A stretch of DNA of 64,000 nucleotides, from contig NW_026250406.1 in NCBI RefSeq assembly GCF_024521635.1, positions 744,001 through 808,000 on the forward strand. The letters run 5' to 3'. Origin of the DNA: Tricharina praecox (taxonomy: Eukaryota). The notes under the pieces are model-generated. The model made no database searches. It saw nothing but the letters and a program-made list of their open reading frames with translations, and had not been told where the DNA came from. Shown one piece after another: positions 4,801 through 45,588 of this stretch. The translations under genes and the position numbers were made by a program. Position 1 is the first letter of the stretch, and every line of letters starts with the position of its first letter.

Positions 4801-6857
4801 TTCTGTTCTTGGTGGGGGGAGGGGGAGATTCCTGCATACGCATTGACGAGGCTGAAGGAAGCGCTGGTGTGCACGTGTGCCATGGAATTCATCTACCCCG
4901 CATCGAGATTTGGCGCACAAGGTGGTAGGCCGTGGTCCCGGTACCTTGTTCTGTGCAACCTAGACGACCACCTAGCACTTGTAGAGTACATGCGCGCGCA
5001 CGTCCTTTCCCAGCACACTGATGTGCGAAGAATCTCACTCCGGGGCCGATCTCGATTCTCGAAGCTGGGCCGAATCTACTTATATATAGTATACCGCATG
5101 TGCCCGGCAGCAGCAGCAGCCCTTGTCGAGAGGCTGAGAAGGAGAGGGGGAATGTGTGCGCAACCCTACCGGTTTGCCTACCGATGACAATGGCATGCAG
5201 TCCGTAGATCCTCTCCTCCCGCTCCCCCCACCTCCGGGGTTCGCCGGTACTTGCCGATCTCGGCGGGATATGCGCGCAGTCCCTCCCCCGGTAAGCGAGT
5301 GCCGTAGTCACTGGTGGTTCGTCCGGAGACGTAATTAGGCCCGTATGTAGCACAAGCCGCGCAACAAAACGTTCGCAGCTCGTCAGCCTTCTGGTTGCCT
5401 AAAGTGCTCTGAGCTTCTGACACTTCACGGTGGCACATGAATGACGAGTCAAGTCAGGCCGCCTGCCAATGCTTCAGCCTTCCATCAGTAGTCAGCTATG
5501 TAGCCTCGGACACCGTAGCCGACTTACTCGCAGCTGAGTGATCCGAGACTGTGGGATGCAGGCTCCACTGCACTGTCCACAAGGTGAAACGGTGAAACAG
5601 TAGAAGGATGCAGCTCGGTGGACCCAAAATATCCACCTGGCACCGGAGGAGTCCGGGATGATAATAGATACATTGTAGCTGTTGCTGCCTACATAGGGCC
5701 TTACAGATCCCCGCGGGTGTGTCAGATTCGATGACGTGCTCCGTTGAAGGTCGGACGGAATGTAAGACCCTATGTAAGCATGTGCTTTATGTAAGGTGTA
5801 CGCATCGTGCAGTGTCGGTCACATGCTCGACCCCGCATTTGCTGTGGTTGCGATGCATCCGCTGCGCTTCCAGCCGCGGCACAGTGGGAGCCCATTGCGG
5901 TTCGAGAGTCCAGCCCCGTGATGGTAGTACCGTTTCTACAAGGCTCTAGCACGACGTCGGCCAAAGGAAAAGGCATGGAAATCGACTCACTCTACGCAAT
6001 TTATGCACACGGCGGCGGCGGCGCGCATTACATACCAACTACGGCGGATATGGTAGGTAGTAGTTGGGGGCTATTCTGGCACAATGCCACCCCACGTCCT
6101 GGTCAGACTGGTACTGTGTCTCACTTGTCAGCAGCGCCAGCAATGCAAAACGTTGGCTGTGCTCTCCAGTGTACAGTGTCGACTGGGATCGGCAATCGGC
6201 CACCACCTGCCTACCGTATGAGTATCCGTCTCCACAGGCCGGCGTTCGGGATGATGAATTTGAAAGACAGCTGGAATGGTGATTCTGCCCGCAGTGCTCT
6301 CTCTGCGCCTGCGGCAGATGATGTACACTACACTACAGAGGAGGCGTGTATGTACTCTACATACCGGTAGTTAGTTGGTTACTCGTGTACATACACAGGG
6401 TACAAACTCATGTACATATGAGCTGTCAGCTCGGTGCAATTTTTTCTTCTTTTCACAAACTGCACACGAGCCGCAATGGCATCCTCGGACCAAAACCTTC
6501 AGGATCTAGATCGGTGCTCATATCTGAAAAAGTAACCAAGCTGCTTGGGTACTTTCGTCGATATGGGTTTCGGCCGATGACACTCAAGACTCAAGAGTCT
6601 CCAGAGCCCAGAACCAGGAGCACTGCAGGTTTGGTATCCGTTCTGGATGGGCACCGTATGATACACACGACATGAACATACTTACTTAGGTAGCTCAATG
6701 CATTTTTCCGTGCATATATAAAAGCAACCGTCGAAAAATAACATTCGGTTACTTGATGCCGGCGAGAATGGGCGGGTCAGCGCGAAAGTTGAAACCGGCA
6801 TTCACCCATCATCCGAGCCCCAAGTCTGAGTCTGAATCCGGGTCCGAGTCCGATCGG

Positions 6858-15431: not shown

Positions 15432-18400
15432 ATGACTTCCTACACCTGCAACTCTCTCCAATGCTCCGCCAAATTTGACTCCGACAACGAACTCTGGTCT
15501 CATGTCATGGCGGAACATCCGGAAGCGCCGCCCCGCGCTGAGCCCGCGCACAATTCTACCGGAGTTGGGCTTCGTGGCGTTGGCAACGCGGCCCATCAGA
15601 GCATGTCACCTCGCGGCGAGCCCGAGCACGACACCGCTCGCAGACGAGGCGGGGCAATAGCACTAGGAGGAACGGGCGATGTGGCACCAGGAGGCGCAGC
15701 GAGAGGCGCGGGCGGAGGATCGCGTACAAGGTGGGGGTGAGCCTCAGATCATCCGACTCTCTCCTTCTCCCCTTTCACGAGCTGATTTTGAGTTTCAGGC
15801 CGTCGGCGACAGTGGATGTGCAAGCGGTCAAAATGCCTTCTCGCGACAAAGGAGGTGATCCCTCGTCGAAACTCTCGACCCGCACCGCGCAGCTGGAGAT
15901 CGCACCGCGAAACACCGATGTCGCACAACGAAATGTTTCCCCTCCGGCAAAGCGCAATGCATCTCAGATCAGTGCAGCGGATATGAGCACGAAACAAGAA
16001 AACAAGCCGCCCCACCCCAGCTCCGGAAAAAGAGTTCGGGCACCACCGCAAACGAGGAAAAGTGTGTACTAACTCTTCCCCCCGTACCCAGAAGATCTAC
16101 TGACCGATTTCTTAGGTCAGCCGCGCTCGCAGAATCGGAAACAGGTAGAGCCGGATCCAGCCTTCATCAGGAACCTGGGGTCTCCCCGGGACGACGACGG
16201 AAACCGCACGAAGCGTCTGTTCAACCCGGACCGAGACGATGCTAGGACCTTCAAGCCCCACCAGCCAGCGCCGCCGAGCGCAGATCCAGTGCCTACTGAA
16301 GATGCACGGCGGAGAAAGGTGGCAAGAAACCATCGCCCATCTGCCGGTATCCTCCAGAAGGATATACCACAACTGCAACAACAGTCACCACACCCCCCCA
16401 CACCAGTCGCGATCGTGCAACGTAATCCTGCCCCCGTGCCGAGACCCGTGAAACAAGAGCCGGATCATCAACCGCCCTCTCTTCCTCACGTGATTGCCCT
16501 GCCAAATGAGAGCGAGGAACGCCTCAGGATGGTACGGCAGCCAGTGACCCGGCCGATCAGCCCCGAGCAACTCATTGCCGAAGTTAAAGGGATCTATGCC
16601 GGCTTGATAATGGTCGAAGCCAAGTGTTGTGAAGTCGATGCGAAGCAACACCAAGCCGCTTTAGAAATGGACAGTAACATGCCCTCGTTGAACAACGAGC
16701 AATGGTCCGTACTAGCCCCCCCGCCTATCATATAAGAATGTAGGAAATAACAGGATCCATGTCTGCAGGCAAGCCCTTATAGCATTACACAGAACACTTT
16801 TGCACGAACATCACGATTTCTTTCTGGCCTCGCAACACCCGTCCGCGAGTCCTTCTTTGAAGCGACTCGCGCAGAAGTACGCGATGCCGGCCAGGATGTG
16901 GAGACATGGTATCCACAGCTTTCTAGAGCTACTACGCCACCGCTTGCCTCATTCTCTCGAGCACATGTTGACTTTCATATATCTAGCTTACTCGATGATG
17001 GCCCTATTATACGAGACAGTGCCCGCTTTCGAGGATACCTGGATTGAGTGTCTTGGGGATCTTGGAAGATACCGAATGGCTATCGAGGATGATGATGTCC
17101 GTGACAGGGAAGTCTGGCAGAACGTTGCGCGGTTTTGGTACAGTAAGGCAGCAGACAAGACGCCAGCTGTCGGTAGACTCTACCATCATCTCGCAATCTT
17201 GGCGAGGCCCAATATCTTGCAACAACTCTTTTACTATTGCAAGAGTTTGGGTGTTAGCCAGCCCTTCAGCTCCGCCCGGGAATCGATCCTGACAGTCTTC
17301 GATCCTATCTTTAACCCGGACGTGTTTAGCAGCAGAAGCCAGCCAGTTGACGCCTCATTCATTCAACTTCACTCCATCACGTTCTCCCATATTGAGTTCG
17401 AAAAGTTTGACTTTGCGCTTGATGCATTCCTAGATCTCCTTGATAAACACATCAGCCGACCTCAGTCCAAATGGAAGGTTAGTACCGCTCATATCCCTCC
17501 CCTCCATGCATATGATGCTAATAACAGTAGGTGCAAGGGTTTTACATGGCTGTCTGCAACATTACCTCTCTGTACCAGTACGGCGCACGTGATAGTTTGC
17601 TTCGGAAAGCTTGGAAGGAAAGCCGGAAGACCCATCCCTCTGCCGAGGCGGGCGCCGTTGGAGACGAAGAAATGGAAGAGGCACCGCCCACCGATGTCGA
17701 AGCGGAAGCCGCAATCGCCACCCTACTTCCCCCGTACGGGACTAACCCAGAGCATGTGGACCCTATAAATGCGACGGATGACAAAGAAATGGACCCAGAA
17801 AGCGCCGGTCTCGCCCAGTCCATCCAGGAGATATCGCTCAATGTATCGAAGCGCCTGGCGTTTACCGTGCTCGGCCTTGCGCTCGATCGCATCAATGATG
17901 CCAACACATTGCCCCATACTCACGCATGGATGGTCTTCGTCGAGCACCTCACCAACTCGGTTGCGGCCATGCGTCTGATAGAGATGGAGTTTCCCTGGAA
18001 GTCTTTGGTTGACATGCTCAATGACATGCGTCTCGCGTACGATGGTGCGGCGGAGAAGATCGAGGGCAAGACATTCCCGGTCCCCGATAAGGGCGTGGGC
18101 AGGCCACTCCCCGAAGACTACAATCTACGTGGGTTTGACTGGGCCAAGAGATATTTCCCGGCTCGCTGGTTCGAGGACGCGCAGGTAAGATCCGAAGGTC
18201 ATAATATTGGGATGTCGCGTGCTGACTGTTTGGAGATTGATAACGAGGAACGTACGCAAGAGCTGCCGTCGATGACCAACATCCGGCGCGAGCGCATTCT
18301 GTGGCTTGCTTTGAGAATCTGCGCGACAGATGACTGGATAGTATACGATGAGGGAATGAAGACCTTCGCTCTGCATACTGCATTGCTGCAACGTATGGAA

Positions 18401-19430
18401 GAGGCGAGCAAGCGGGCAGCTGCGGCAGCTGCGAGGCGAGAGAGGCGTGGGCGGGCGTTGGCCGATGATGACGATGTTGACATGACGACCACTGGATACA
18501 GCAACTCCGACGAAGAGGATTATGTCATGGTGCCACCTGCGCTGCTGGAACTCAAGAAGAAGAGGCGCCAGCTCCAAGCTCAACTTCAAGCCGGGCCACT
18601 TGGCCATGTCATCACGCCAGAGGCCATCGCCGAGGTTTCTCGATCCGCTATCGTCAAAGGCCCGGAGGCGCTGGACGCGCAAATTACTGCCTTTGTCGTG
18701 GACACCAACTTGTTGGTGAGCCATCTGGAGACATTCAACTTGGTCACGAGGGAAGGATGGACAGTCATCATTCCGAATTCTGGTAAGCGGTAGAATTCGA
18801 CCAGTGAGCTGTACTGTTTTAACCATTTTCCGTACAGTGATTACCGAACTCTCGGGCCTTGCAAACAACTCTTCCGTCGGGGATTCGGCCAAGAGCGCCA
18901 TGATAGCCATCAACAAGGCAATTGCTGATAAAGCTAACATCCGGATCATCACCGCGAAGGGGAACGACGTCACAAAGGCCGGATTCTTCAAGGAGAAGGT
19001 GGAGCGGGACGAAAATGAAATCCGCAACACTGACGACATTATCATCCGTACTACCCGCCACCAAGCGGAGTCGCGTCGTTACGCGTTTGCGTCCAAGGGC
19101 GTTATCGGATATGCCGCTCAGCCTGCCATTCTTCTGACCGAGGACACCAATATGCGCGTTAAGGCTAACGCGCGTGGAGTCCCGGCCATGTCGACTACGA
19201 TCCTCAAAAAGTTCTTGGTGCAGTTGAGACCCAAAAGGCCGTCTCCTCGAAGACCTGAGAAGAAGTCGGCCGCCCCGGTTGTTAAAATCAAGTCTGAATA
19301 CGATGATGAGGATGATTTGCCTATGCCGGATATGCCGGAAATAAAGGACTCGAAGCCCATGAGAAACAATCCTGCGGTTGTCGAGCCACGGTGGAAAACG
19401 GAAACCCCAAGTTACTCCCCTACTCGGTAG
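15432..19430 (+). CDS. Est1/SMG6-like protein (Est1 TPR-like DNA/RNA-binding domain plus C-terminal PIN nuclease) with a predicted N-terminal C2H2 zinc finger
   Basis: Exons approx 15432-15736, 15799-16061 (alternative donor 16034), ~16116-16704, 16769-17477, 17531-18184, 18236-18782, 18838-19430. Conserved fungal Est1-like block QLIAEVKGIYAGLIMVEAKC..EQWQALIALHRTLLHEHHDFFLASQHP..MPARMWRHGIHSFLELLR..WIECLGDLGRYRMAIE..GRLYHHLAILARP, and PLPEDYNLRG. PIN motifs FVVDTN, VITELSGL, NTDDII, LLTEDTNMRVKA. Confidence 0.9.
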
Positions 19431-26011: not shown

Positions 26012-28551
26012 AACCGGTCCTGCACCTGACGATACACCCACAGGAGAAGCTCGCCAATCCCAGACGAATTCGCTGGCTGAGCGGGGTTGAAGCCACCTCG
26101 GAATTCTACCAAGGTCGACAAAGATCCCACTCGAATCATGGGCACGCACTCGCCGACTACCCAGCTGCATTTGGAAACGCAACCGGCAAACGCCAGCTCT
26201 GCGCCGTCGCCGTCCGGGGTATCATTCTAATCCCGCGTACATCTGCTACGATAGCGTAGATAACTATGCGTGGTCAGCAGGGTCGGGCGAGGCGAAGGAT
26301 ATAATGGAATCACCGTATGTACACCGACGAGAAAGCGCGCGTGGGGGGAATGAGGTAGCGGCGAACACGCACAAGCACATGGCATCCCGAATGAAGAGGA
26401 TATACCACCAGGGAAGGGGTTTGAGGGTTTTTGGACGGCGGGCTCGGGACGCTTGGTGTGGCGGCCTCTCCTAGCCGTGGACGGAAGAATAGGCTCAGAG
26501 ACGGTTGCCCGACGAGGAGACTCCGGAGTATGTACTTCCCACTTGCTAAGGAAACCACACACGTTGTCTATCGAGCTGCCCAGAAGGTGGTGGCAGACGA
26601 CGCAGCGGGTATTCCCAGCGATGCTCACCGAAAGATATCGATCAAGTGATAGATCCGCAATATGGAGCCGCAACTGTTTTCGCACCCTCAGAGGCGCACA
26701 CACTGGCACTGTTGGTAATTGGCATTATCGACGGGATGTTGGATCCGGGCACCAGTAGTGGCTGCTGCTGCTGAGTTCTTCGGCACCGGCACCCATTTAG
26801 TACCGTCTCAAAGCGCCTTTAATTTCACGGCCTCTCCATTACCTACCTTCGAATGGGATTTCTGTTCATCAGCTTTTGCAGTGCCGACTCACGCGGAGAG
26901 GAATTGCATGACCGATACCTAGGTTCCTTGGTGGAGTAGTGAGAGACCCAAAAACAGGATGACACAAAGGCGTGATCAATTGAAAGTGAGGTCTATGACG
27001 ATGATGATGAGAAGAAAAGCAAGACGGACAGGAAGAACAATAGTGACAGCAAGAAAATTTCAACGTTTACCAACCGTATCGGGCCTGATGCAGGCCTCAC
27101 CTCCATAACACATATGACATAGGCCCGACCAGGTCCCAACAAGGTCTCCTCTCTCCAGTGCTCACTACGACGCCAAGCCTCCTCGACCTCCGCGCTCCCT
27201 CAGTAGCCGAAGAGCAGGGCTACAAACTTCCGTGTCCACCAGCACTTCACGAGCAACTACATGGCAGCATGAACCTTGCCATGGCTTCGGCGACAGCCAA
27301 CCGACGAAGCCGTTGTTTCGACGGCCCATCTCCATTCGGTGGTTGATAGCCATATCCGAATTTTCGAAGACACCGAATCATAGCATTGACCTTTGTTCCT
27401 AACTCTCAACCGTTAAACCATTGTCTTATGTACATTGTCCAGTCCGTCCATTTTCGAGGCTCGGACGATGCGGGGCTAGGTACATCGCCGTCCATCCGGA
27501 GGCCATGGCAGAAACGGGGCAGTCCCAAGGAGCCGCCGAACCGAACGGATGTATTCAAATGCTTGAACGGAATAAATGTTGGATAATGGATTTGTGAGTA
27601 ATCAACAGTTTTGATGCTCTTCGTCCTAAACGGCACCAAGTAGCCCGAGATTTCGTCTGTATGTCATGTGACTCTCCCTTCTGTGCCTTGCCAGGGACGG
27701 TAGGAAATATGTACTTGAAACAGACGGGAATTCGTTAGAAGCCTAACCAAGAGCGCTATATCTTCGCATTCCCAAGTGGAAATCCCCTATGACCGCAGGT
27801 ATTCCGTCGTATAGTCTTCGCTACTGACAGACGAGTCACGAGACCGACTGTTCAGATGTCGTCCTACCGAGGTAACCGACGGGAGCGAACCGTTGGGACC
27901 GAGAACATTGCGGCAGATAATACGACATCTACTAGAAAAAAATCGTCTCGTACATAAGCTTCCGCGCCTCCATGGCTTGTGGTGCTACTATGCTAGTAGT
28001 GCAAAAGAAATGATTTCACCCAGGCTCGATCTGGGGACCTTGTGTGTGTTAGACACATGTGATAACCAACTACACCATGAAACCATTTATGATAACATCT
28101 GGTCTAGTAATTTTATGGACTGCTGGCAATAATAATAATACCCAACGTAGAGACCCTCCCGCACCCAGGCACAAATGTAGCCTCACCAGCTCCCTGCACC
28201 CAGTGCTGATTACTCGCGATCGTGATGGGTCGAAATATATGCCGACATCTGTACTTCTGAAGAAGTCGTGTACCTACCTAAGTGCAAAGACCAGGACACA
28301 ACTTTCTATTTCGTCCCGGCAAACAGTTCAAGCTTCCGGTCCTCGATTTTGCCGCTCTTCGTCCACAAAATCCCCCACAGGTCCAATGCGCAAGGTGAAT
28401 ACTAGCAGGTACGAAGTGCGGGGCACCGGTTCAAAAGCAATCAATAGAGATAGAGATATGTCCTTGTACATTGCCCAGTATCCCCTGTACACTCCTCCCC
28501 CACAGCCACGCTCACGGGCTAACATCACTCGCCTCCGCCGAAGACCCTCCA

Positions 28552-28795
28552 TCGTCGTCCTCCTGCTCCTTTTATTCCTTGGACTTTCCCTTGATTTACG
28601 TCCACCTCGAAGACGAGTCAATGCCATTGTCGTAATCCTCCTGCTCCTTTTTCTCCTTTTTCTCCTTGGACTTTCCCTTACTTTTCGACTCCTTCAAAGA
28701 CGAGTCAATGCTATCGTCGTCCTCCTCCTGCTCCTTTTTCTCCTTGGACTTTCCCTTACTTTTCGACCCCCTCAAAGACGAGTCAATGCTATCGT
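28552..28795. repeat. Three ~75-87 bp tandem repeats at the 3' end of the AAA+ gene
   Basis: Repeated ...tcctgctcctttttctccttggactttcccttacttttcgac...agacgagtcaatgc..., encoding DDSIDSSL.SKSKGKSKEKKEQEE units on the minus strand. Confidence 0.9.
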
Positions 28796-31700
28796 CGTTC
28801 TCAACCACCTCGTGCTTCTTTTTCTGCTTAGGCTTTGCCTTGCTCTTTGGCGCCGGCTTGTCCTCGCCAGTACTTTCACCCGACTCTGCCTTCTTCTTCT
28901 TCTTCTTCTTCTTATCCTTCCTCTTCTTCCCCTTCTTCTTAGCCGGCCTCTGTTCCTCTTCCTCACTTTCCTCGGATTCTGAACTGGATTCGGACTCGGA
29001 TTCGGACTCGGATTCGGACTCGGATTCCACCACCACGTGCTTCTTCATCCCCTTTTTAGACCTTCTTCTCCTCCGCTGCCCATAATCATCTCGTCGGATC
29101 ATGTCCTCTTTGGCGATGAGACTATCCGACGCCCGTGTCTTCTCCAGGTACTTCTGGAAGTCGAGTGATAGCCTGACCACACGCTTCAAATGGTCTGCCT
29201 GCAGCCGCGGGCGCTCATCGTCACCACGGGCCTCGTATAACGCCAAGCTGACCGCCGTCTGGAACAAGTTTCGGATCTAGCGAGGGTAGTCAGTTAGCAA
29301 AAGCGGAACGAGGGGTACGAGGGAACTAGGGGGTTGGGGGGGGGGCGGTTCCACCTGGCGTCCGTTGAATTCCAGCTTTCGCAGTTCGTCCGAATGGATG
29401 TACCTTGTGGCATTACTGGCCACACGGAAGTCTTGTCGTGCCTTTTCGAAGCGCTTGATGTGGTTCTCCCAGATCCTAACGCGGTCGTTTTCGCCGAGAG
29501 GTGGGTAGTAGACGATGGCGTGGATCCGTGAGGTGAATGCTTCGTCGAACGTACCCACACGGTTCGTCGTAAGGAATAGGATGCCTTTGTAGTACTCTAG
29601 GATCCGCAGAAATACTGTGGGACAATGAAGGGCATTAGTAACGGCGGGGTAGAGGAGACGTCCATGGGCTCCTACCAGATACTAGACTGTTCCTTGCGAG
29701 GTCATCTAGTTCTCGTCGTTGCAAAAAGACATCCGCCTGGCCAAAACTGAACAATTATTCTAATGAGAGAGGAGATGGAGTGTGGCATACCTCGTCGAGG
29801 AGCAAGATAGCATTCCAGTGATGGGCGCTGCGAAATCCAGTCACTATTGTCATGTTATGCTTGCAGACCAGCAGGGGAACTCACAGCCGGAAGTTCTGTT
29901 GAAGATTCTTCTCCAGCTCGCTTGGGTCGATTCCGATATCCCCGCAGGTGATGGGAAACAATGGCCTCATTGTGTACTTGGACATTGTCAGCTACATTGC
30001 TTCGAGAAGCGGGGCTGCGAAGGCGGCACAAACCTCAGCAACGCACTCTGCAGTACTAGTCTTTCCCGTGCCTGGAGCACCATGTAAGAGAACCAGAAGG
30101 CCTTGCCCTTTCCCTCGGATGGCATCGGCCGAGTACAGCTCATATGTCTTGTCACCGGATTTATCATCCGGCGACCTCTGCACATGTGATTGCACAAGAG
30201 CCTTAATGATATCGGTTCTTCCTTCTGGCAGAATGAGATTATCGAACACTTCCCTGTTTGATAGGATCTCGGAGATGTAATCGACATTTAGATTCGCTGT
30301 GGATCCGTCAGCTTGAGGAAGCCGAAAGGAAAAAGGCTAGGGGTGAATCTGTACTCCACCGTCGATCCTTCAAGATCCAACCATACAGACGGTTGTTGAT
30401 GAGGAAACATTGATGAGCGGTAGGTGCCTTGCTCTTCTCCAAGCTTTCGTATCCAAAAAAGGGTTCCTTCCCCCCAGGGTCGGCGAATTTGGTGCCCGAG
30501 TCATTGCGGCACTGCCTGCAGTCGCAGCTTGCCTTGTTGTTCTCCTTCAGCTTCTCGTCTTCAAATCCCGGGAAAGAAAGCTCGTATCGGTGATAGCTTG
30601 CGGAATCAATAACACATCGGCTTTCGACCTGTCATAACTCAGCATACACCCCACCAATCAACCGAAGTAATGCGGTGGACTTACGTGGAGTGGTGGGTGA
30701 TACTCGTACGCAAAAGTGTTGCCATTGTACTCGATATGCAATGGAGATCTCCTATGGAGTTCAAACATCTTGTTTCCACGCTCTTCCAACTCCTTCACCA
30801 AGCTTTTTCCTTCAGTCCTATCTTTGTGATATCTAACAGGATAGATCTCCAGTGATTGAATCTCTCGCGGGTCCTTGAAGTAAGGGATCCAGAACATCTG
30901 GGTGCACCTGCCCCATTTATTCCCGTCATACTCGATGTACCAACACTCAATATTGTAAACGTTCGCCTGTTTCATTGTTAGCACATGGAGATATTGGAAA
31001 GAAAGCCTTAGGGGGAAATACTTTCTCGTAGTACGAGTCACTGAGGGCTACAGCTCTGACCACCATCCCTCTAGGAAAATCGTGAGTCTGGTTGGTGATT
31101 ACGTCGTCTCCGGGCTTGAAGATCATCCAAAGGTTATGGAAGCTACATCTTGGCACCGGATCATTATGAAGTGCCTTCTCCGTCTCCCAAGCCGGCAGCA
31201 CAGACTTCCGTAGAAAACCGAGAAGGAGATTGATGTGCTCGACTCTGGTTTCCATATCGTCGTGCTGGGGATACAGCGTCGCATAATTTTCCAGGTCGGA
31301 AAAGTGATGGTAAAGTAATGGGTATGGTTCGGAGAATATCAGGTTGTCGTCGGTCAGTGATTCGTTAGGATAGTATTTGACTATGGTCCTGATGGCGTTG
31401 GCGAGATACGGAGAGTTGATCACGATCTGAGACGGTATCGCCTCGAACCCAACCCATCTAGTCCGAAGAGTTGCAATCAGTCGTTCCAGTCGTACCACGT
31501 TAGGGGGGCTTCAATACCTCCTAATATCACGCACGTATATCTTCTTTCGAACCTCGATCGCATGCAGAACATCTTTCACGTCTTGCTCCCCCTGCGGTTC
31601 GAATGACGCCTCTTCTCCTGGAACGGTGGCGTGGATACTGGCTCCTGAATATCTGGAGCTTAGGTAATCGACGTGATACTGGATATCGCCCACGACTGTA

Positions 31701-32368
31701 TTCTTCGGTGCTTCTTCTGCCGTGCCTTCATCACCCCCAGGAGAAGCCTCTTCTACTGCAACTACTTCTTCCGACTTGGAAGGCAAGCCTGCCTGGGTTG
31801 TTTCAACTGCATTCAGTCTGTCCTCGAGATGCTGGATATACTCGACGTATTTAGTGGCTGCCCGGATCTGTGGTACACAGGGTCAGTGGGAGGGAGCAAC
31901 TGGTCTAAAAAACGGTAAACAAGCCTTTAGACCCATGGATTGAAACGTCTGTTCCTTCTCCCATTCCCGAGGATCCGAATACCTCAAGTCGTAGCTAATC
32001 CTGGGGTCTAACGGAGAGGGTATGTCGCGAAACATAACAGTTCCAGTTTTTTGTTTAGGCGGCGGTTTGGCCGCCTCTGGTTCCAAATCCTCGTTGGCGG
32101 GGGCTACAGTTTCGATCTTGGGTTCTTCGGCGGTGAGCAGATCCTCGGGATGTTCCTCCTCCTCCTCGTCTCTTCTTTCTGCGGCCCCAGGCCCGAGACC
32201 GAGCTCGCCGCCATCCGGATTCACGGAGTCATCCTTGGCTGGCGGCGGGGCGGTCACGCTTTCGCCGGCCGCAGCTGTGATACGCCGCTCAAACCGAATT
32301 GCGGCGCCGTTGCTGTCCGTCTTTGTTTCCGAAGATATCTCGGGTTCCTCGTATGATTCCATGACCAT
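28596..32368 (-). CDS. Fungal AAA+ ATPase (family with a DUF7025-like N-terminal region and a single AAA module) with a long K/E/S/D-rich C-terminal tail
   Basis: Multi-exon; first in-frame ATG at 32368. Spliced motifs: IVINSPYLANAIRTIVKYYP, EPYPLLYHH, SFHNLWMIFKPGDDV, CWYIEYDG, IQSLEIYPVRY, SCDCRQC, FDNLILP, DAIRGKGQGLLVLLHGAPGTGKTSTAECVAE (Walker A), RPLFPITCGDIG, WNAILLLDEADVFL (Walker B), RNSLVSVFLRILEYYKGILFLTTNRVGTFDEAFTSRIH, FNGRQIRN. The donor of the first intron is uncertain. Confidence 0.92.
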
Positions 32369-32981
32369 CGTTGGAGTTTGCTGCTGCTCTGGGGGCGCAG
32401 GTAGAGACACGGCGAGGTGATGCCACCGACGACTGCTACGGGACGAGCGGGCGGGCCGGTGAGTTGGTGCTTCGCTTGAGTGCTGGAGATATCCAATGGC
32501 ACTTACAGGTCAGTTTTCGCAAATGGAAGGCTTGAGCGTTTAGTACTTATTCGTATCGTACTCGCCTCGGTACTTCAGATCTATTTCACATTCGCCATCT
32601 TGTCCGAACCCCCCACTTGTTGTGCCAATGCACACGGCACCGACATGCATGCATGCATGAACTTCGTATCCGGGTTGGCTATCAGGTGTTCAGGCAGCAG
32701 TGGCTGTCGGGGTGTTACACGGACATGCATGGATGCAGATTACCGTAAAAGACAATCGTCGATTCTCTCTTGATCTACCCCGCACAACGAGGGGGAGAGA
32801 CTGTAGGAGAGCAGATCAACTGGGTGCCAAAAGCGCCCCCACCGCAGCGCCTATCAGAAACCATATCTACATGCATCTTCGGTACTTTATACCATTCTCA
32901 GACTCTCATCTAGTGGTGACGAGTTCGATTCCCAGATTCCATACCCAAAGGCGCCCCTAGTAGCGGCTGTGCGAAATCGAA

Positions 32982-35320
32982 ATGCTTCCAGTCGACATAT
33001 CCGCGCCGGCCCAACAGGTCTGGCAAGCCCTGCTGGAGCGTGACTTTCCAGCCGAAGTCCGTGAAATCCTGCATCGGCCACAGGCGAGGTATCTTCACTC
33101 CCCCTCGGCCTATAGATAGTACGGCAGCTGACCGGCCGCACCAGCTCTCTCCACCCCGTCAACGACCGCAAAGCCAAGGTCAACGCGGCACTCAAGATAT
33201 TCGTGGAGCAGAAGCTCTCGCGGAGCGAGCGCGAGAAGTTCAAGGCCTCGGGAAAGTACCATTCCTTCGAGGATGTAGTCACGCACCTGCAGGAATCGGC
33301 CGAGCACTGGGCAAAGAAGGGGGGCCCGCTCGTCACCGCTAGAGAGACATTGTTGAAGGTCTTGGATCGCCTGGGTCACTTCCAGACACTGTTTAGCATC
33401 TTCCCGAGTCAGTCCGCGTACATGAGCCCCTTTTGTGGTGCGCTGAAGGTGCTTTTGATGGTATGTATGATACGTCTGGGTAGCTGCAAGAGTGCGGCTG
33501 GTGATGTTGATCGTGGGGCGGCGACAGGTCGCGAGTAACTATGAGAGCTCCGTTAGAGAGATTGTGGATGGACTTCTGGAGATCTCGGATGCCACCCGAG
33601 AGGTTGCGGAGTTATCGTGCTTGTTCCATCGGGACGAGATCCAGAAGCACGTTGTCCTATTCTACGCGGACATCCTCACATTCTGCTGGTATGCTTTGGA
33701 GTGGTACAATTCGAAATCATGGAGTAACATCACACACATACAATCCGCTGTCACTTCACCTAGGTATCTAACAGCTTTTCGCAGTGAAACTGGCCAAAAA
33801 CTTCCGTGATTGCGGCTTCAGCAAGAAGATGACGGAAACGATACTCGAGGTCCGGCGCGACGCAAAGAACATCCGTAGACTATCAAGGAACAGCAGCTTG
33901 GCCGAGATCAAGCTTATAGGTGGACAGCTGTCGAATCTTACCCGGGCCAACTGTGATGTGCAGACTACCCTGAACGAGGTCAACAGCGAACTTAGACAGG
34001 TCTCTGATAACCAGCAGTCAATTATACTAGGTGCGAACCCTATCGGTCCGGGGGTCTGCTCTTTCTGACGATGTTGCAACTATGTAGGGCTGGCAAAGGG
34101 CTTGGAAGAGTTGAAAATGCAGACGTGGGCTTCGCATTGGCGACAGTCAATAGAGATCTTGCGTCTGCGGCGTGAGGAGAGAGGACGCATTGAGCCCGGT
34201 ACGACACCAAGTTATGACATTCGTTTTCTCCCTTTTCCTAACAGACAGGCACATACAGTGAAGGAATACAAGAAGAAAAAACCTTTACTTCTCAAGGCCA
34301 GGGATGACGACTCCAGTGAGTTGCTGCCACATCCATACGTTCTATGTATGATTTCATGATAAAATCTGACCGAGCCACAAAGCCTCCAAGGAGACGTCAG
34401 AAGAAGAATCCAGCGTCCGCCGCTACAACCTAGCGGAAGTCATCAAGCAATTCCGAAAATCCACCGGCCTCACAGGCTACAACGTAACCAAGGACCTCGA
34501 AGCCGCTACACGCAAGCAAAGGACCGGCGGGCGATGTCATCCCAGCGACCGCCTCCCATCCTGGATCTCGGGACGGAAATCGCAGCTACTCTGGCTGCAA
34601 GCAACCCGGGCACCGTCTCAGAACACCGGCTCTGCGCTTGCCCACTATGCGGCCGATATCGTAAACTCGGCCGCATACGCTGATATTCCCATCATCCACT
34701 ACTTCTGCAAGCGTACATTAGACTCGGACGATGAGGATGGGGATGAAGACCCCGTGTGCGCGCTCATCAATAGCTTGTCGCTGCAGATACTGCTGCTCTT
34801 CGAGAAGAAGATCCTGGAGACCGATATTGCCCTGGATAGGAAGCGGTTGGCGCGCCTATCCGCATCGCATAAGGAGGCATGGAAGTTTTTTGGGGAGCTG
34901 GTGGGCTTGCAGCCATCACTGGCAGTTGTCATCCACTGTCTAGAGTACTATGAGGATTATCCGGCGGCGATGGACTTGATGAAGCGATTGAACGGCCTGG
35001 TCGAGGGGCGCGGCAAGACAGTACTCAAGGTCCTACTGACAAGCAAACGTCGCACCACGACGCTGCGAAGAAGGATCCCCGAAGATGCTGTGGTGCATTT
35101 TGAAATCGCAAGACACGAGCGTGGTCGGAAGTTGAAACAGAGATTTCGGCGCCGGGCACTAGGGCGAACTGCGGATGCGGCCGATAGGGTCTGGCTGAGC
35201 AGCGGGGATGAGCGTGACACTGCTTCCAGTGAGGATGATCAGGAAAGCGGCTCTGAGGAAGAAGAGGATGATAGCGAGGACTCCGAAGAAGAGGCGGAGG
35301 AGGCCGAGGAGACCGAGTGA
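32982..35320 (+). CDS. NACHT/STAND-like protein: helical N-terminal domain (DUF7708-like), coiled coil, degenerate NACHT-like P-loop fold, acidic tail; no C-terminal sensor repeats
   Basis: Exons approx 32982-33088, 33145-33460, 33528-33723, 33785-34030, 34088-34198, 34259-34315, 34383-35320, all GT-AG and in phase. N-terminal pattern LFSIFPSQSAYMSPFCGALKVLLMVASNYE..FYADILTFCWYALEWYNSKSW. NACHT-like order: RLPSWISGRKSQLLWLQ, IPIIHYFC, ALINSLSLQIL, LAVVIHCLE, LKVLLTS. Confidence 0.75.
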
Positions 35321-36244
35321 TCCGAAAGCAGATAGATTAGGCGGGAGCCGCAGGACCAGGAGATAGGATTTGGTAACTTTATGCACGATATGCAGGTGGT
35401 CCACGGACACGGTTAGAGTGAGCGGGTGGGGAGGGGGCGAATTCAAGTTCAAGTTCGACAGGCGAGACTAGAAGCACTATGAGTGCTTCTTCCTCAGGTC
35501 GCGGGGGGTGGTCGCTGGTCAGGTGCATCGCTTCACAGCTGCGGGGCAGAAGGTTCCAAGCATAACTCCAGTATGATTGGCCCCGGTATGAGAAATGGTG
35601 ATGCGAGGTGGGCGCGGCACCGGCATCTTGGGGGCGAAAGCGTCATGCGGGCGCCCCTATAAGCGAGAAAAATGCATCGGCTCTGGTTTCCAAGCCCAAG
35701 GTTCCGTCGTATATCTCGAGATCCGCACGTAACGCCATGTGCACGGAGTTCGGTTGGTCGATAAGGCCTGAAACCCATGTGCGTGGCGGCCATGGCAGAG
35801 TATTTGCGCAGTTGCCTCTTTCGGCTCCCATTTACGGGATTCCCAGGAGCGGGATCTAGAGTGTTCAACATGCTGGTTAACCTCTTAGGCCAATAGGGCG
35901 CGTACGTGGGGTGGTGGGTGTTTTTGACCCGGTCTTCTCCCGCCTGAGTATTAATTCGGGCAGTACCCCCCCACCTCATTGAGTCGCATCGATAACCTTC
36001 AGCGGAAAAAGGTGATACCATCACCAACCCACGTCCGAACGTAAGAGACACTCGTCCAAGGATCTTGTTCGAAGGTCCGACAACTGAACTCCTCTTGCAT
36101 TGTCGATCTTGCTGCCCAAAAAAGAGACACTCGTCCTACGTCCTCGCCCTCCAAACCACTATAGACGATCGAATTCCTCTTTTCCGTAACGGACGATCAC
36201 CTTGGAGCCCCAAGAAAAGAGCAATCCGGAACGAGAGAAGCCGG

Positions 36245-37390
36245 ATGTCGGACCGAGACACCACCAAGATGGCGCCTTACCAACCCGAAGTCACTCCGGT
36301 GCTCGAAACGTCGCCGCTCATCACCGCGCGCCGCCAGTTCTTTGCCTACATGAGGACGCCGCGTTTCTACCTCGTTCTGTTTATCGGTCAGATACTCTCT
36401 CTATGCATCACGGGCACGAACACCTTCTCCGGCCTTCTGGCCAGCCGCGGTACTTCGATCCCGGCCTTCCAATCGCTCTTCAACTACGTCCTCCTCAACA
36501 TCGTCTACACGTCGTACACTCTATATAAGTATGGGTTTAGAGGGTACCTCAAGATGCTGAAGGAGCGCGGGTGGAAATACCTGATCCTCGCCTTCCTCGA
36601 TGTCGAAGGTAATTACTTCGTCGTTCTGGCCTACCGCTACACCACCGTCATCTCGGCGCAATTGATCAACTTCTGGGCCATCGTCGTCGTGGTCATCATC
36701 TCCTTTGCTTTCCTGCGCGTGCGATACCACTGGACGCAGGTGGTCGGTATCCTGATCTGCTGCGGTGGCATGGGACTGCTACTGGGACGTGATGCACACA
36801 ACGGCATGACGGTCGGCGGAATCCCCACGGAGCTCAAGGGCGACCTCTTCATGCTGCTCGGCGCAAGTTTCTACGGCTTGACAAACGTAGCCGAAGAGTT
36901 CCTGGTCTCGCAATCGCCGCTCTACGAGGTCGTCGGCCAGATCGGATTCTGGGGCATGCTCATCTCTGGCGCGCAAGCGGCAATTTTCGACCGCTCCCAG
37001 TTCCAAAGCGCGACTTGGACAAGCGAGGTCGGTTGGTATCTGACCGGCTTCACCCTGATCATGTTTATCTTTTACTCGACGGTGCCGATCCTGCTGCGAC
37101 TGGCGTCCGCCGCCTTCTTCAATATCAGCTTGCTCACGAGCAACTTCTACGGTGTCGCCATCGGCATCAGGGTCTTTGGTTACGTGCTGGACAAGTATTA
37201 TCCGCTTGCGTTCGTCATGATTATTGTGGGTCTGGTTATTTATTTCATGTTCATTTCTGTGTACGGCGAGGCCAAGAAGCCGTGGCTGGGCGATGATCAG
37301 GCGGCCGGTGTGGTGGGCGTGGGAACGGCGAAGAAGATGGCGCTGAAAGAGCCGGCGGCGGTGGGGCCCCAGGGTGATCGAGTCGTGTAG
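36245..37390 (+). CDS. SLC35F family (DUF914 / SLC35F1-F2-like) multi-pass membrane transporter
   Basis: Intronless ORF with about 10 hydrophobic segments; motifs GQILSLCITGTNTFS, IPAFQSLFNY, DVEGNYFVVLAYRYTT, GDLFMLLGASFYGLTNVAEEF, FFNISLLTSNFYG. ATG at 36245 (alternative 36269). Confidence 0.92.
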   Translation: MSDRDTTKMAPYQPEVTPVLETSPLITARRQFFAYMRTPRFYLVLFIGQILSLCITGTNTFSGLLASRGTSIPAFQSLFNYVLLNIVYTSYTLYKYGFRGYLKMLKERGWKYLILAFLDVEGNYFVVLAYRYTTVISAQLINFWAIVVVVIISFAFLRVRYHWTQVVGILICCGGMGLLLGRDAHNGMTVGGIPTELKGDLFMLLGASFYGLTNVAEEFLVSQSPLYEVVGQIGFWGMLISGAQAAIFDRSQFQSATWTSEVGWYLTGFTLIMFIFYSTVPILLRLASAAFFNISLLTSNFYGVAIGIRVFGYVLDKYYPLAFVMIIVGLVIYFMFISVYGEAKKPWLGDDQAAGVVGVGTAKKMALKEPAAVGPQGDRVV

Positions 37391-44493: not shown

Positions 44494-45588
44494 ATGAGCG
44501 GCCCGCAATACGCGCCATCGCAGGGCCCCACAGCGGGGCAACACAGCGCCGGACCGCAGAACTACTACGGCAGCGCCGACGACCAGACGGCCATGTACAC
44601 GCGCGAGCCTCCGCAGTATGCGGACGACGAGACGTTGCTTCGTGGCGGCGTGCCGCGCAGCAGCGAGGATAATGTAGGTCGACCTAGAGAGCTGGAGAGC
44701 TGGAGAGTGGGCTAGCGAGCTGGAGTTGAGCTAATGTGCGCCCCACCACTAGATTCCAGACGACTTCAAGTTCGGAGGCTGCGTCGCTGAGGGCACAATT
44801 GATATCCGCCACGCGTTTATTCGTAAGGTTTATGCGATACTGTATGATGCTCCGTACTTCTGGTTGGATGTGGTGGGAAGGCGAATGGTGGGAAGGCTAA
44901 TGGTGGCTGACTTTGGGGCGTCAGCACGGTGCAGCTCCTCGCGACGGCGGTTCTCTCGGCGGTCTCGTTCTTCAGCGTCGGCTTCAAAGCATGGATCCAG
45001 AGCAATACGTGGATGATGTTCGTGGCGATGTTCGGCTCTCTCGGCTTCCTATTCGCCACCTACTGGAAGCGCAAGTCGTACCCGACCAACCTGCTGTTCC
45101 TGTCAGGCTTCACGCTTCTCGAAGCGTACACCGTGGCCGTGATCACGTCGTTCTACGACTCGCGCATCGTGCTCGAGGCGGTCATCATCACCGGCGCGCT
45201 GTTCGTCGCGCTTACCCTGTTCGCCTGCCAGACCAAGTATGACATCACCGGCTGGCAGAGCTATCTCTACGGCGGCCTGTGGATGCTCATCATCTTTGGC
45301 TTCGTGTCGATGTTCTTCCCCGGCACCTGGATGGAACTCGCGTATGCTGGCGCTGCGGCCCTGCTGTTCTCTGTGTATATCGTCGTCGATACTCAGTTGA
45401 TCATGAGACATGTCCATGTCGAGGAGGAGATTGCCGCAGCGATCTCCCTGTATCTCGATATCATCAACTTGTTCCTGGCGTATGTTTCCCTCCCAGGCGA
45501 GCGAGCGAGCGGACTGCGTGCGTACGGTGACTGACAATATGTGAACCATAGCATCCTGAGGATCCTCAACTCCTCCAGCGATAACTAA
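44494..45588 (+). CDS. BXI1: Bax inhibitor-1 family (TMBIM/LFG-like) membrane protein
   Basis: Exons 44494-44673, 44753-~44841, ~44925-45479, 45552-45588. Motifs IPDDFKFG, IRHAFIRKVYAIL, KRKSYPTNL, ACQTKYD, YIVVDTQLIM, EEEIAAAISLYLDIINLFLAILRIL. Confidence 0.92.

Follow-up and report, generated by a model that had tools for sequence, protein, structure and literature searches.

A head-to-head gene pair encoding an AAA+ ATPase and a P-loop-less NLR-like protein as a possible co-inherited unit of filamentous ascomycetes

The 64-kb window, by which we mean the whole stretch of DNA analysed here, contains two divergent genes whose products may work as one unit: gene A, encoding an AAA+ ATPase, and gene B, encoding an NLR-like protein devoid of a P-loop. 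With a probability of roughly 0.4, we tentatively propose that the two genes have long been inherited together in filamentous ascomycetes, as a unit with a shared divergent promoter in which B would be a scaffold or adaptor served by A. The earlier note on this DNA had read the locus as a co-regulated module of an ATPase and a dead NACHT-like partner, possibly acting in immunity; taken as a whole, that interpretation is partly supported.

Results

Two divergent multi-exon genes with start codons at 32368 (A, minus strand) and 32982 (B, plus strand), as anticipated in the earlier note, were confirmed by spliced transcript contigs of X1 and X2, two public runs belonging to two studies; in both runs the genes are transcribed and correctly spliced. 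The genes lie head to head across an intergenic region of 613 bp (32369..32981), of which ~300-350 bp fall outside both mRNAs, as judged from the ends of the transcript contigs (those of B calculated from contig sizes). On the 5' side of the A mRNA, contigs extend to 32491 in X1 and to 32496 in X2. A and B may be co-regulated from this putative divergent promoter.

The coding sequence of A (28596..32368, minus strand, ATG to TAA) comprises 11 exons with an open translation of 1059 aa. Exons 1-6 span, from high to low coordinates, 32368-31925, 31867-31518, 31457-31022, 30966-30685, 30628-30355 and 30296-30034, followed by exons 7-11 at 29976-29885, 29827-29791, 29736-29676, 29614-29355 and 29276-28596; the splice joints of all ten introns were present in the contigs of X1 and X2. 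Intron 1 (31924-31868) is of the GC..AG type, and an in-frame TGA is spliced out with intron 2 (31517-31458). Exon-by-exon Pfam searches gave the domain order DUF7025, AAA and AAA_lid_13. The DUF7025-containing N-terminal domain (PF22942; 30685..31457, minus strand, exons 3 and 4) scored 61.5 bits on exon 4 and 25 bits, below the 27-bit cut-off, on exon 3. The AAA core (29355..30296, minus strand, exons 6-10), delimited from translation and Pfam AAA, reached 22.7 bits on exon 6 (cut-off 21.2), and AAA_lid_13 matched single exons with 36 and 42.4 bits. The latter score belongs to exon 11 (28596..29276, minus strand), which encodes the second half of this lid (PF23232) and then a Lys/Glu/Ser-rich low-complexity tail, in which Tandem Repeats Finder detected a 78-nt unit at 28653-28802 and 6- and 12-nt units at 28971-29027. 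The opposite end of the protein is a long, disordered N-terminus of ~250 aa.

The catalytic motifs reported for the ATPase proved intact in the spliced translation, namely Walker A GAPGTGKT (residue 668), Walker B ILLLDEAD (721), sensor-1 LTTN (761) and SRIH (775), so that, judging by its sequence, A belongs to the fungal DUF7025/AAA_lid_13 ATPases and is competent for catalysis. The pore loop 1 position (CGDIGIDP, residue 694) carries no aromatic residue in a weak alignment of the L005 homologue with AFG2B. Since threading AAA+ unfoldases have such an aromatic, A fits poorly with a simple unfoldase model.

Gene B (32982..35320, plus strand, ATG to TGA) encodes 656 aa in seven exons (32982-33088, 33145-33460, 33528-33723, 33785-34030, 34088-34198, 34259-34315 and 34383-35320), with an open translation. 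Five of its six intron splice joints were found in the contigs of X1 and X2, and the sixth intron (34316-34382) is deduced from contig pieces whose first base lies exactly at 34383. The intron at 34199-34258 is 60 nt long and in frame, and the transcript in X2 stops at 35396, followed by adaptor sequence. The helical N-terminal domain proposed for this protein was identified as DUF7708 (PF24809, 43 bits on exon 3). In the alignment with full-length relatives, exons 2-4 (33145..34030, plus strand) fall along the DUF7708 columns; they hold this Goodbye-like domain and the start of a long helix. The supposed coiled coil may correspond to this helix, as the structural model of the relative P0013 (residues 1-358, alignable with the B exons) predicts a helical bundle and then a single helix of ~110 residues.

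The nucleotide-binding-type domain of B (34418..35119, plus strand, residues ~12-245 of the last exon) was delimited from a structure model and the family alignment. As the earlier note had claimed, it has no recognisable P-loop: the Walker A position reads LLWLQATRAPSQNTGS, without GK[ST], while the Walker B position reads VVIHCLEYYED, in which the aspartate is replaced (VVIHCLE). The last exon has no Pfam match of its own at E<=0.1, and its predicted fold is confident (pLDDT 81.7, pTM 0.77), with an alpha/beta NTPase core. In VIA-align comparisons, this core scored Z 12.6-13.5 for Orc1/Cdc6, 12.3 for Avs3, 11.7 for Sir3, 10.7 for ZAR1 and 10.4-10.5 for CED-4; Foldseek returned Orc4 (E 3e-5) and Sir3 (E 6.7e-4). 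Neither a winged-helix domain nor a helical arm is present in B. An acidic Ser-rich tail (35135..35317, plus strand), predicted disordered (pLDDT 49-58 from exon residue 250 onward) and also seen in some relatives, closes the protein. The absence of WD, ANK or TPR repeats was likewise confirmed, given that the chain ends ~60 disordered acidic residues past the fold, which leaves no room for them. Lacking P-loop, winged-helix and helical modules and sensor repeats, B cannot be a self-contained nucleotide-driven switch.

B is a member of a small ascomycete family, with 39 matches among 1.84 billion representatives. The NACHT-like character attributed to B holds at the level of the family, 29 of the 39 relatives matching the NACHT-type Pfam domain NPHP3_N at E<=0.01 and 17 reaching its 24.8-bit cut-off, but NACHT and Orc/Cdc6-type AAA+ domains cannot be told apart by fold alone. 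An NLR origin of B is supported. The Walker A GK[ST] is missing in all 20 relatives aligned residue by residue (18-62% identical to B), and the seven full-length relatives (613-722 aa) likewise terminate directly after the nucleotide-binding-type domain. Purifying selection was evident in the pseudo-domain (dN/dS 0.157 between window and L001, 0.252 between window and L003) as well as in exon 2 (0.089). These data support B as a maintained and expressed protein rather than debris.

A metagenome scan yielded six loci, corresponding to three lineages besides the window, with upstream context in three lineages when the window is included. The A-B pair was present in two of these three, the window and a distant fungus represented by L004-L006, a single species (98.7-99.8% DNA identity). 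There, an A-like gene (DUF7025 80.5, AAA 42.5 and AAA_lid_13 101.9 bits; 39-65% identical to A) and a B-like gene (28-31% identical to B in the last exon) are arranged head to head, with 496 bp from ATG to ATG as against 613 bp in the window. The flanking genes (GDPD, aminotransferase, GH47, ATP19) have nothing in common with those of the window, while introns 1-4 of B occupy identical positions and phases in both, indicating that the pair was retained while its surroundings changed. In the closest relative of B (L001/L002, 76% identical in the last exon), by contrast, searches relaxed to E<=50 detected no trace of A in the 8.0-8.6 kb upstream of B or in the 6.8 kb downstream of it. Similarity between L001 and the window starts 2 nt before the B ATG, and a Tc1/mariner transposase remnant lies upstream of B in L001. 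Given that B is under purifying selection in the comparison with L001, adjacency is not essential for B. The expected recurrence of the adjacency is therefore borne out in a distant genome with different flanks, but not beside the nearest B homologue.

No second copy of A or B occurs in the 64-kb window and no A-type gene in the other ~30 kb of flanks examined, a density too low for A to be a likely chance neighbour. On this comparison of gene order in two lineages, a conserved two-gene unit is plausible. We found no published description of a recurrent pairing of an AAA+ ATPase with a pseudo-NLR, and none of the papers searched names DUF7708, DUF7025 or AAA_lid_13.

Discussion

We propose that B derives from a fungal NLR by reduction and would have kept the DUF7708 helical domain, the long helix and the alpha/beta nucleotide-binding core and lost the P-loop, the winged-helix and helical modules and the sensor repeats. 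Such a protein would most likely act as a scaffold or adaptor. A might recognise B, or a complex nucleated by B, through its DUF7025 N-domain, and could provide, in trans, an ATP-dependent step of assembly or disassembly of which the pseudo-domain of B is no longer capable. Both the physical contact and this direction of action, from A on B, are conjectural. A role in immunity or allorecognition, as previously suggested, or in cell death would be a further conjecture, to which the neighbourhood lends no support: the other genes of the window are of housekeeping types (SLC35F, Est1/PIN, Bax inhibitor, EF-G-like, PX/Vps5), with neither HET nor further NLR genes among them. The description of the neighbouring interval (19.5-28.5 kb) as gene-poor and repeat-containing applies in part: none of its stop-free frames of at least 110 aa matches Pfam at 1e-5, but the tandem repeats in it are few and short.

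It is quite possible, at somewhat less than even odds, that A and B are functionally independent, neighbours by descent whose arrangement has lasted in some lineages because disrupting a short promoter region used by both genes carries a cost, rather than because the proteins cooperate. Divergently transcribed fungal pairs have been reported to persist longer than other neighbour pairs, whatever their function. This possibility agrees with the intact and constrained B of L001/L002, where A is lost or never adjoined, with a pair found in two lineages only, and with a shared intergenic region without conserved motif, the window and L004-L006 regions having none in common above shuffled sequences. 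It accounts less well for a pair whose orientation and spacing are kept although the flanking genes differ completely. Moreover, A and B are fast-evolving genes of accessory type and the B family is rare, so that inertia alone would explain their joint retention less readily than it would that of housekeeping genes.

We consider it unlikely that B is mainly a nucleotide-independent decoy, inhibitor or adaptor co-assembling with canonical DUF7708/Goodbye-type NLRs while A has another job. In plants and animals, shortened or atypical NLRs are known to modulate full-length ones, the pseudo-domain of B is conserved, and its N-terminal domain type also seems to occur in longer STAND proteins. As leads, a language-model search with the DUF7708 part of P0013 gave Goodbye, DUF7708 and NACHT_N as nearest clusters, and a 920-aa cluster with DUF7708, NPHP3_N and WHD_GPIID matched it at TM 0.72. 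However, no canonical NLR gene is present in the window or at the related loci, just three long relatives carrying a B-type DUF7708 were found and they resemble gene-model fusions, and the recurring ATPase neighbour is left unexplained. This possibility overlaps with functional independence of the two genes.

That B is a decaying NLR remnant transcribed by chance, as the missing P-loop, repeats and own Pfam match on its nucleotide-binding part could suggest, is highly improbable and contradicted by a 656-codon frame open through seven correctly spliced exons, dN/dS values of 0.16-0.25, a reduced architecture without Walker A shared by 20/20 aligned relatives, intron positions kept at ~30% identity and a confidently predicted last-exon fold.

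The proposed scaffold-and-ATPase unit shares features with several known systems. With fungal NLR/STAND proteins (Goodbye-like/DUF7708 plus NACHT/NPHP3_N; NWD/HET-E type) B has in common the DUF7708 N-terminus, the NPHP3_N matches of its relatives and, in its own copy, the AAA+/STAND fold. It differs in lacking Walker A, the Walker B aspartate, the winged-helix/helical arm and WD/ANK/TPR repeats and, with 656 aa, has about half the usual size, so it cannot be a repeat-based sensor or a self-contained nucleotide switch. A has all three domains of the uncharacterised fungal DUF7025/AAA/AAA_lid_13 ATPases (PF22942, PF23232) in the usual order with intact motifs, and differs by its ~250-aa disordered N-terminus and its Lys/Glu-rich repetitive tail. 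The best structural matches of the B domain are the scaffold AAA+ domains of the Orc/Cdc6 group (Orc4, Orc3, Sir3, Rif2), several of which act without ATP hydrolysis. They have no sequence relation to B, whose sequence relatives are NACHT-type, and possess lid and winged-helix domains, both lacking in B.

As in clustered NLR-plus-partner systems, such as the fungal NLR/effector pair NWD2/HET-S and head-to-head plant NLR pairs, A and B diverge from one short promoter region and recur in another genome. There, the NLR serves as sensor and its partner as executioner or second NLR, whereas here the NLR-like B has neither sensor nor P-loop and its partner is an AAA+ ATPase. The nearest solved sequence to the ATPase is AFG2B, at only E 7e-5, and weak PADLOC matches of the L005 ATPase exons to TRIP13 (E 1.8e-6 for the lid exon, 1.5e-4 for the core) and IetA (E 5e-7) may reflect general AAA+ likeness. 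TRIP13/Pch2-type AAA+ remodellers are dedicated to one signalling scaffold, the HORMA proteins, also in bacterial CBASS defence operons. B is not a HORMA protein, but these systems offer a working analogy for the pair, that of an AAA+ enzyme dedicated to resetting a non-enzymatic scaffold whose gene lies next to its own.

Results

Between 28.6 and 35.3 kb of the window, the stop-free frames fall into two exon sets on opposite strands, in fungal DNA with short GT..AG introns. The spliced models give gene A, an AAA+ ATPase gene (28596-32368, minus strand), a product of 1059 amino acids from 11 exons, and gene B, an NLR-like gene without a P-loop (32982-35320, plus strand), one of 656 amino acids from seven exons. 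Both models were built by hand from the sequence and then checked and corrected against contigs of two public sequencing runs from two studies, X1 and X2. These runs are recorded as 'RNA?', and their spliced nature is evident from alignment to the window: on the locus the contigs show no other letters in the pieces listed and omit exactly the proposed introns, which identifies them as spliced transcripts, with a depth that cannot rank A against B. Splice joints were seen for all ten introns of gene A and for five of the six of gene B, the last gene B intron being implied by contig pieces starting at 34383. Transcript joints also define a GC..AG splice pair for gene A intron 1 (31924-31868, minus strand) and the fifth intron of gene B, which is in-frame and 60 nt long (34199-34258, plus strand), while gene A intron 2 (31517-31458, minus strand) excises an in-frame TGA between otherwise continuous frames. 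Read without transcript data, the first two introns of gene A could make the gene appear broken. The two start codons lie 613 bp apart, and the contig ends leave a gap of about 300-350 bp between the two mRNAs.

Further contigs were observed at the outer ends of the two genes. A single 4416-nt contig of X1 spans gene B, the intergenic stretch and the SLC35F gene (35996-37387, plus strand), and may represent read-through or an assembly join; in X2, the gene B contig runs into adaptor sequence after 35396, and another contig starts at 35474. Just past the 3' end of gene A, transcript contigs are present at 27702-28403, with several loose ends (28009-28011, 28074-28075); position 28042 differs as G>A in both runs. 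The stretch has no Pfam match and might belong to another transcript as a small spliced exon.

The product of gene A contains Walker A (GAPGTGKT at residue 668, matching GxxxxGK[ST]) and Walker B (ILLLDEAD at residue 721, matching hhhhDE, across the transcript-confirmed joint of exons 8 and 9), followed by LTTN (761) and FTSRIH (775), whose counterparts in the homologue of the metagenome locus L005 are LTSN and FTSRLH. By their position and the general consensus, we take the latter two to hold the sensor-1 Asn and the second-region-of-homology arginine. The list of catalytic motifs in the earlier note was correct, all four being found in the spliced product. Pfam matched DUF7025 at 61.5 bits and AAA_lid_13 at 36 and 42.4 bits on its two exons (both cut-offs 27), as well as AAA (PF00004) on exon 6 alone at 22.7 bits against a cut-off of 21.2. 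As far as can be judged from its sequence, gene A encodes an AAA+ ATPase with catalytic motifs, an ordinary member of the uncharacterised DUF7025/AAA_lid_13 family. The nearest solved sequences were weak matches, led by AFG2B (E 7e-5) and followed by Lon and NVL. In a weak alignment (domain E-values 0.5-4), the PFVG loop of AFG2B D2 faces GTDPATLE in the L005 homologue, and at the pore loop 1 position taken from the weak AFG2B alignment gene A reads CGDIGIDP, neither stretch containing an aromatic residue. The lack of this aromatic, if it holds, argues against gene A acting as a plain threading unfoldase. In PADLOC, the ATPase exons of the L005 homologue matched IetA and TRIP13 weakly, and the DUF7025 domain and B gave no match. 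A homologue search for longer proteins related to the N-domain of the L005 ATPase returned none.

The first ~250 residues and the C-terminal tail of the gene A product are low-complexity. In the tail, a 78-nt unit is repeated in 1.9 copies that are 95% alike (28653-28802), encoding an Asp/Ser plus Lys-rich unit, and 6- and 12-nt repeats at 28890-29027 encode Glu-Ser runs; the transcript contigs are ambiguous across these tail repeats. In the ATPase of L005, the linker exon (L005:6650-6800, minus strand) encodes an Asp run and then Tyr/Asp repeats, an insert absent in gene A.

In gene B, Pfam recognised DUF7708 in exon 3 (43 bits) and gave no match at E<=0.1 for the last exon (34383-35320), whose 311 residues hold the P-loop-less nucleotide-binding-type domain, hereafter the pseudo-domain. 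A HMMER search with this exon against 1.84 billion representatives returned only 39 proteins at E<=0.001. NPHP3_N, a NACHT-type P-loop domain, was matched in 29 of these 39 at E<=0.01 (17 reaching the 24.8-bit cut-off) and unmatched in the other ten, and 14 of the 39 additionally carried DUF7708. The seven relatives available at full length (613-722 aa) run from DUF7708 through a helical stretch to an NPHP3_N-like domain, at which the protein ends. Longer proteins were not found by the homologue search with the last exon of B, and the longer relatives of the DUF7708 part of P0010, another relative of B, were three proteins that appear to be fused gene models.

At the Walker A position gene B reads LLWLQATRAPSQNTGS, which is not a P-loop. 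GK[ST] was found at this position in none of 20 relatives aligned residue by residue, in which the strand before the P-loop position is conserved as LLWIxG. The Walker B region reads VIDGLxxLD in most relatives and VIHCLE in the window and its nearest relatives; in VVIHCLEYYED of gene B, His occupies the Asp position of the family alignment, and Glu follows three residues on. The AlphaFold2 model of the last exon (pLDDT 81.7, pTM 0.77, from a 40-row alignment) has an alpha/beta core at about residues 12-245, order ending near residue 258 of 311 and then a disordered acidic tail. Its Foldseek matches were Orc4, Orc3, Cdc6 and Sir3, with E-values between 3e-5 and 1e-3. VIA-align, run over 48,161 chains, gave Z scores of 12.6 for Orc1/Cdc6, 12.5 for Orc4 and 12.3 for Avs3 (rmsd 3.5, 183 aligned), followed by ZAR1 (10.7), CED-4 (10.4), NRC2 (10.1) and Apaf-1 (9.3), and realigning the Foldseek matches with VIA-align produced the same picture, Orc1/Cdc6 scoring 12.6-13.5 over the two runs. 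The two comparisons agree in assigning the modelled exon to the AAA+/STAND alpha/beta nucleotide-binding fold. The fold does not tell NACHT and Orc/Cdc6 domains apart; it is from the Pfam matches of the relatives that B takes the NACHT label. No animal NACHT chains appeared among the 50 matches listed per VIA-align run, a result that excludes nothing, and the PDB profile search with gene B gave one match, the Walker B region of NLRP5, which was non-significant (E 0.55). A language-model atlas, used at the level of leads, placed the C-terminal part of B among ascomycete NPHP3_N clusters.

After the core, the model contains no lid and no winged-helix or helical arm, and neither the model nor Pfam revealed C-terminal repeats. 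The N-terminal half was approached through a model of residues 1-358 of the relative P0013 (pLDDT 80.8), which stands in for B, the alignment placing window exons 2-4 in the same columns. It consists of a helical bundle (69-245) and then a single helix of ~110 residues. For this part, Foldseek against the PDB returned generic helical bundles and no match at E<=0.001, and the absence of a solved match does not make the fold new. At lead level again, the atlas set it next to the Goodbye, DUF7708 and NACHT_N clusters, and near a 920-aa cluster with DUF7708, NPHP3_N and WHD_GPIID (TM 0.72). B thus has the fold and the N-domain of an NLR and lacks the P-loop, the arm and the repeats, which makes it an NLR derivative, not an NLR. 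On these grounds of sequence, canonical nucleotide binding by B is ruled out, and B has no sensor.

The surroundings of the pair were scanned with Pfam in 150 of the 174 stop-free frames of at least 110 aa, the other 24 lying inside A or B (18, covered by the exon scans above) or at the far end (6). At 1e-5, matches were obtained to a GMC oxidoreductase, Est1 plus PIN, SLC35F, a metallophosphatase, Bax inhibitor-1, an EF-G-like GTPase, a PX/Vps5 protein and a GTPase, SLC35F lying directly downstream of B. The Bax inhibitor-1 family gene (44911-45531, plus strand, 172 bits), 10 kb downstream of B, and the Est1/SMG6-like gene with EST1_DNA_bind and PIN_4 (16716-19427, plus strand), 9 kb beyond gene A, are ordinary conserved genes. 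None of these 150 frames matched a HET gene, a further NLR or a transposon at 1e-5, which does not fit the variable NLR cluster envisaged in the earlier note. The gene-poor, repeat-containing interval that it had described is confirmed in part, 19.5-28.5 kb being without Pfam match and holding small repeats only.

The recurrence of the pairing was assessed from one metagenome scan with a 5-sequence alignment of the closest relatives of B, which yielded six loci with B-like genes from three further lineages. The scan motifs sampled the 'I[HD]C[LM]E' subgroup of the B family, to which P0010-type proteins do not belong. L001 and L002 are 100% identical, L004, L005 and L006 are 98.7-99.8% identical to one another, and L003 covers 2 kb starting inside B, too short to show the upstream neighbour. 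Locus content was established by Pfam, by tblastn queries with the two spliced products and by inspection of the DNA itself. The B-like gene of L004-L006 stands head to head with an intact DUF7025/AAA/AAA_lid_13 gene (80.5, 42.5 and 101.9 bits), 496 bp separating the start codons. Compared with A, this ATPase shows 39% identity over the N-domain and 56-65% over the ATPase part. The B-like gene shows 28-31% identity to the last exon of B and 35% to its DUF7708 part, and P0004, a relative of B with an NPHP3_N match, agrees with the last exon of the B-like gene at 98% identity. Introns 1-4 of B have common positions and phases in the window and in L004-L006; the ATPase gene has three introns there against ten in the window, two positions being in common. 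None of the flanking genes of L004-L006 (GDPD, aminotransferase, GH47, ATP19) recurs in the window. Adjacency beyond this genome, on which the earlier note had made its reading depend, was therefore found: the pair stands head to head again in L004-L006, between other flanks.

The L001/L002 lineage presents the opposite arrangement. From B downstream, everything there, SLC35F and the genes after it included, keeps the order of the window at a DNA identity of 76%. Similarity between L001 and the window starts 2 nt before the B ATG (around L001:8595) and the upstream DNA is unrelated, so that the whole promoter and the 5' UTR differ from those of the window. No trace of gene A was detected within 8.0-8.6 kb upstream or 6.8 kb downstream of B in L001/L002, even at E<=50. 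About 640 bp upstream of the B start, L001:7538-7960 (minus strand) holds a Tc1/mariner-type transposase HTH remnant, scoring 31.4 bits against a cut-off of 31.5. Among the three lineages whose sequence reaches upstream of B, two thus have the pair, those of the window and of L004-L006, and L001/L002 lacks it. The simplest history suggested by these sequences would be an ancestral A-B pair broken in the L001 lineage.

Apart from the pair, L005 contains a 232-nt stretch twice (4812-5039 and 18513-18742, ~92% identity), with one copy close behind the ATPase gene on its 3' side and a second ~8 kb beyond B. It may be a dispersed repeat bracketing the pair.

Discussion

A and B lie on either side of a common divergent promoter region, transcripts of both are present, and their arrangement has been kept in a second, distant lineage. 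We tentatively favour the view that the two genes form a functional unit, with a probability of roughly 0.4. Its main rival, a credible second choice, holds that A and B are merely old neighbours kept together by the shared promoter. Divergent gene pairs in fungi are reported to outlast other neighbouring pairs, and the L001 lineage has B without A next to it. Further A- or B-type genes were found neither in the rest of the window nor in the other flanks; at this density a chance neighbour is unlikely, although the bound is crude. Recurrence between different flanks is a real signal, yet it comprises two lineages and one counter-example. Promoter motifs shared by the window and L005 were sought as common 8- to 12-mers, which did not exceed those of shuffled sequences. 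A complex prediction for the L005 ATPase (three exon-encoded parts) with the B pseudo-domain, the chains being folded without alignments, scored 0.00 and carries no weight either way. With lower probability, B may serve as a decoy towards canonical DUF7708 NLRs, an explanation that overlaps with that of old neighbours. The reading of B as a pseudogene is contradicted by dN/dS between the window and two related species (0.157 and 0.252 in the pseudo-domain, 0.089 in exon 2, at dS ~0.8).

If A and B do act as a functional unit, B might use its helical N-domain, long helix and pseudo-domain to act as a scaffold or adaptor that does not depend on nucleotide, and A, via its DUF7025 N-domain, could assemble or reset B or the complexes of B, supplying in trans the ATP-driven step. 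A bolder version, which we consider improbable, is that of a 'split NLR', in which one lineage of ascomycete NLR-like proteins lost the nucleotide switch from the receptor-type protein and a separately encoded, divergently co-transcribed AAA+ ATPase took it over. In that version the DUF7025 ATPase and the pseudo-NACHT scaffold would make up a single ATP-controlled device for signalling or cell death; this would represent an uncharacterised fungal immune or stress module, a unit older than the split between the window and L004-L006 fungi. The interpretation offered in the earlier note is supported in part: the anatomy and the recurrence hold.

Fungal NLR-like proteins are numerous and most have no known function, and the DUF7025/AAA_lid_13 and DUF7708 families exist only as uncharacterised Pfam entries; our literature search found no paper naming DUF7708, DUF7025 or AAA_lid_13. 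One paper treats NLRs without terminal domains as a category (PMC12258605). No account of such an ATPase/pseudo-NLR pair was found in the literature available to us, and the supplementary tables of the same paper may list truncated NLRs of the B type (PMC12258605). Should the pairing prove general, it would give the first functional handle on both partner families, indicate that an NLR-type scaffold can persist under selection without a nucleotide switch of its own, and provide a simple two-gene system for studying the control of pseudo-ATPase scaffolds. Even if the pairing is not general, B marks a small, conserved family of NLR derivatives with neither sensor nor P-loop, and domain-based NLR censuses may miss or misclassify proteins of this type.

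With a NACHT NLR, B has the N-domain type and the fold in common, but it differs in having neither P-loop nor arm nor repeats. The known systems with which the pair invites comparison are the NWD2/HET-S clusters, the head-to-head NLR pairs of plants, and TRIP13-HORMA, together with the non-hydrolysing AAA+ domains of Orc and Sir3 proteins.
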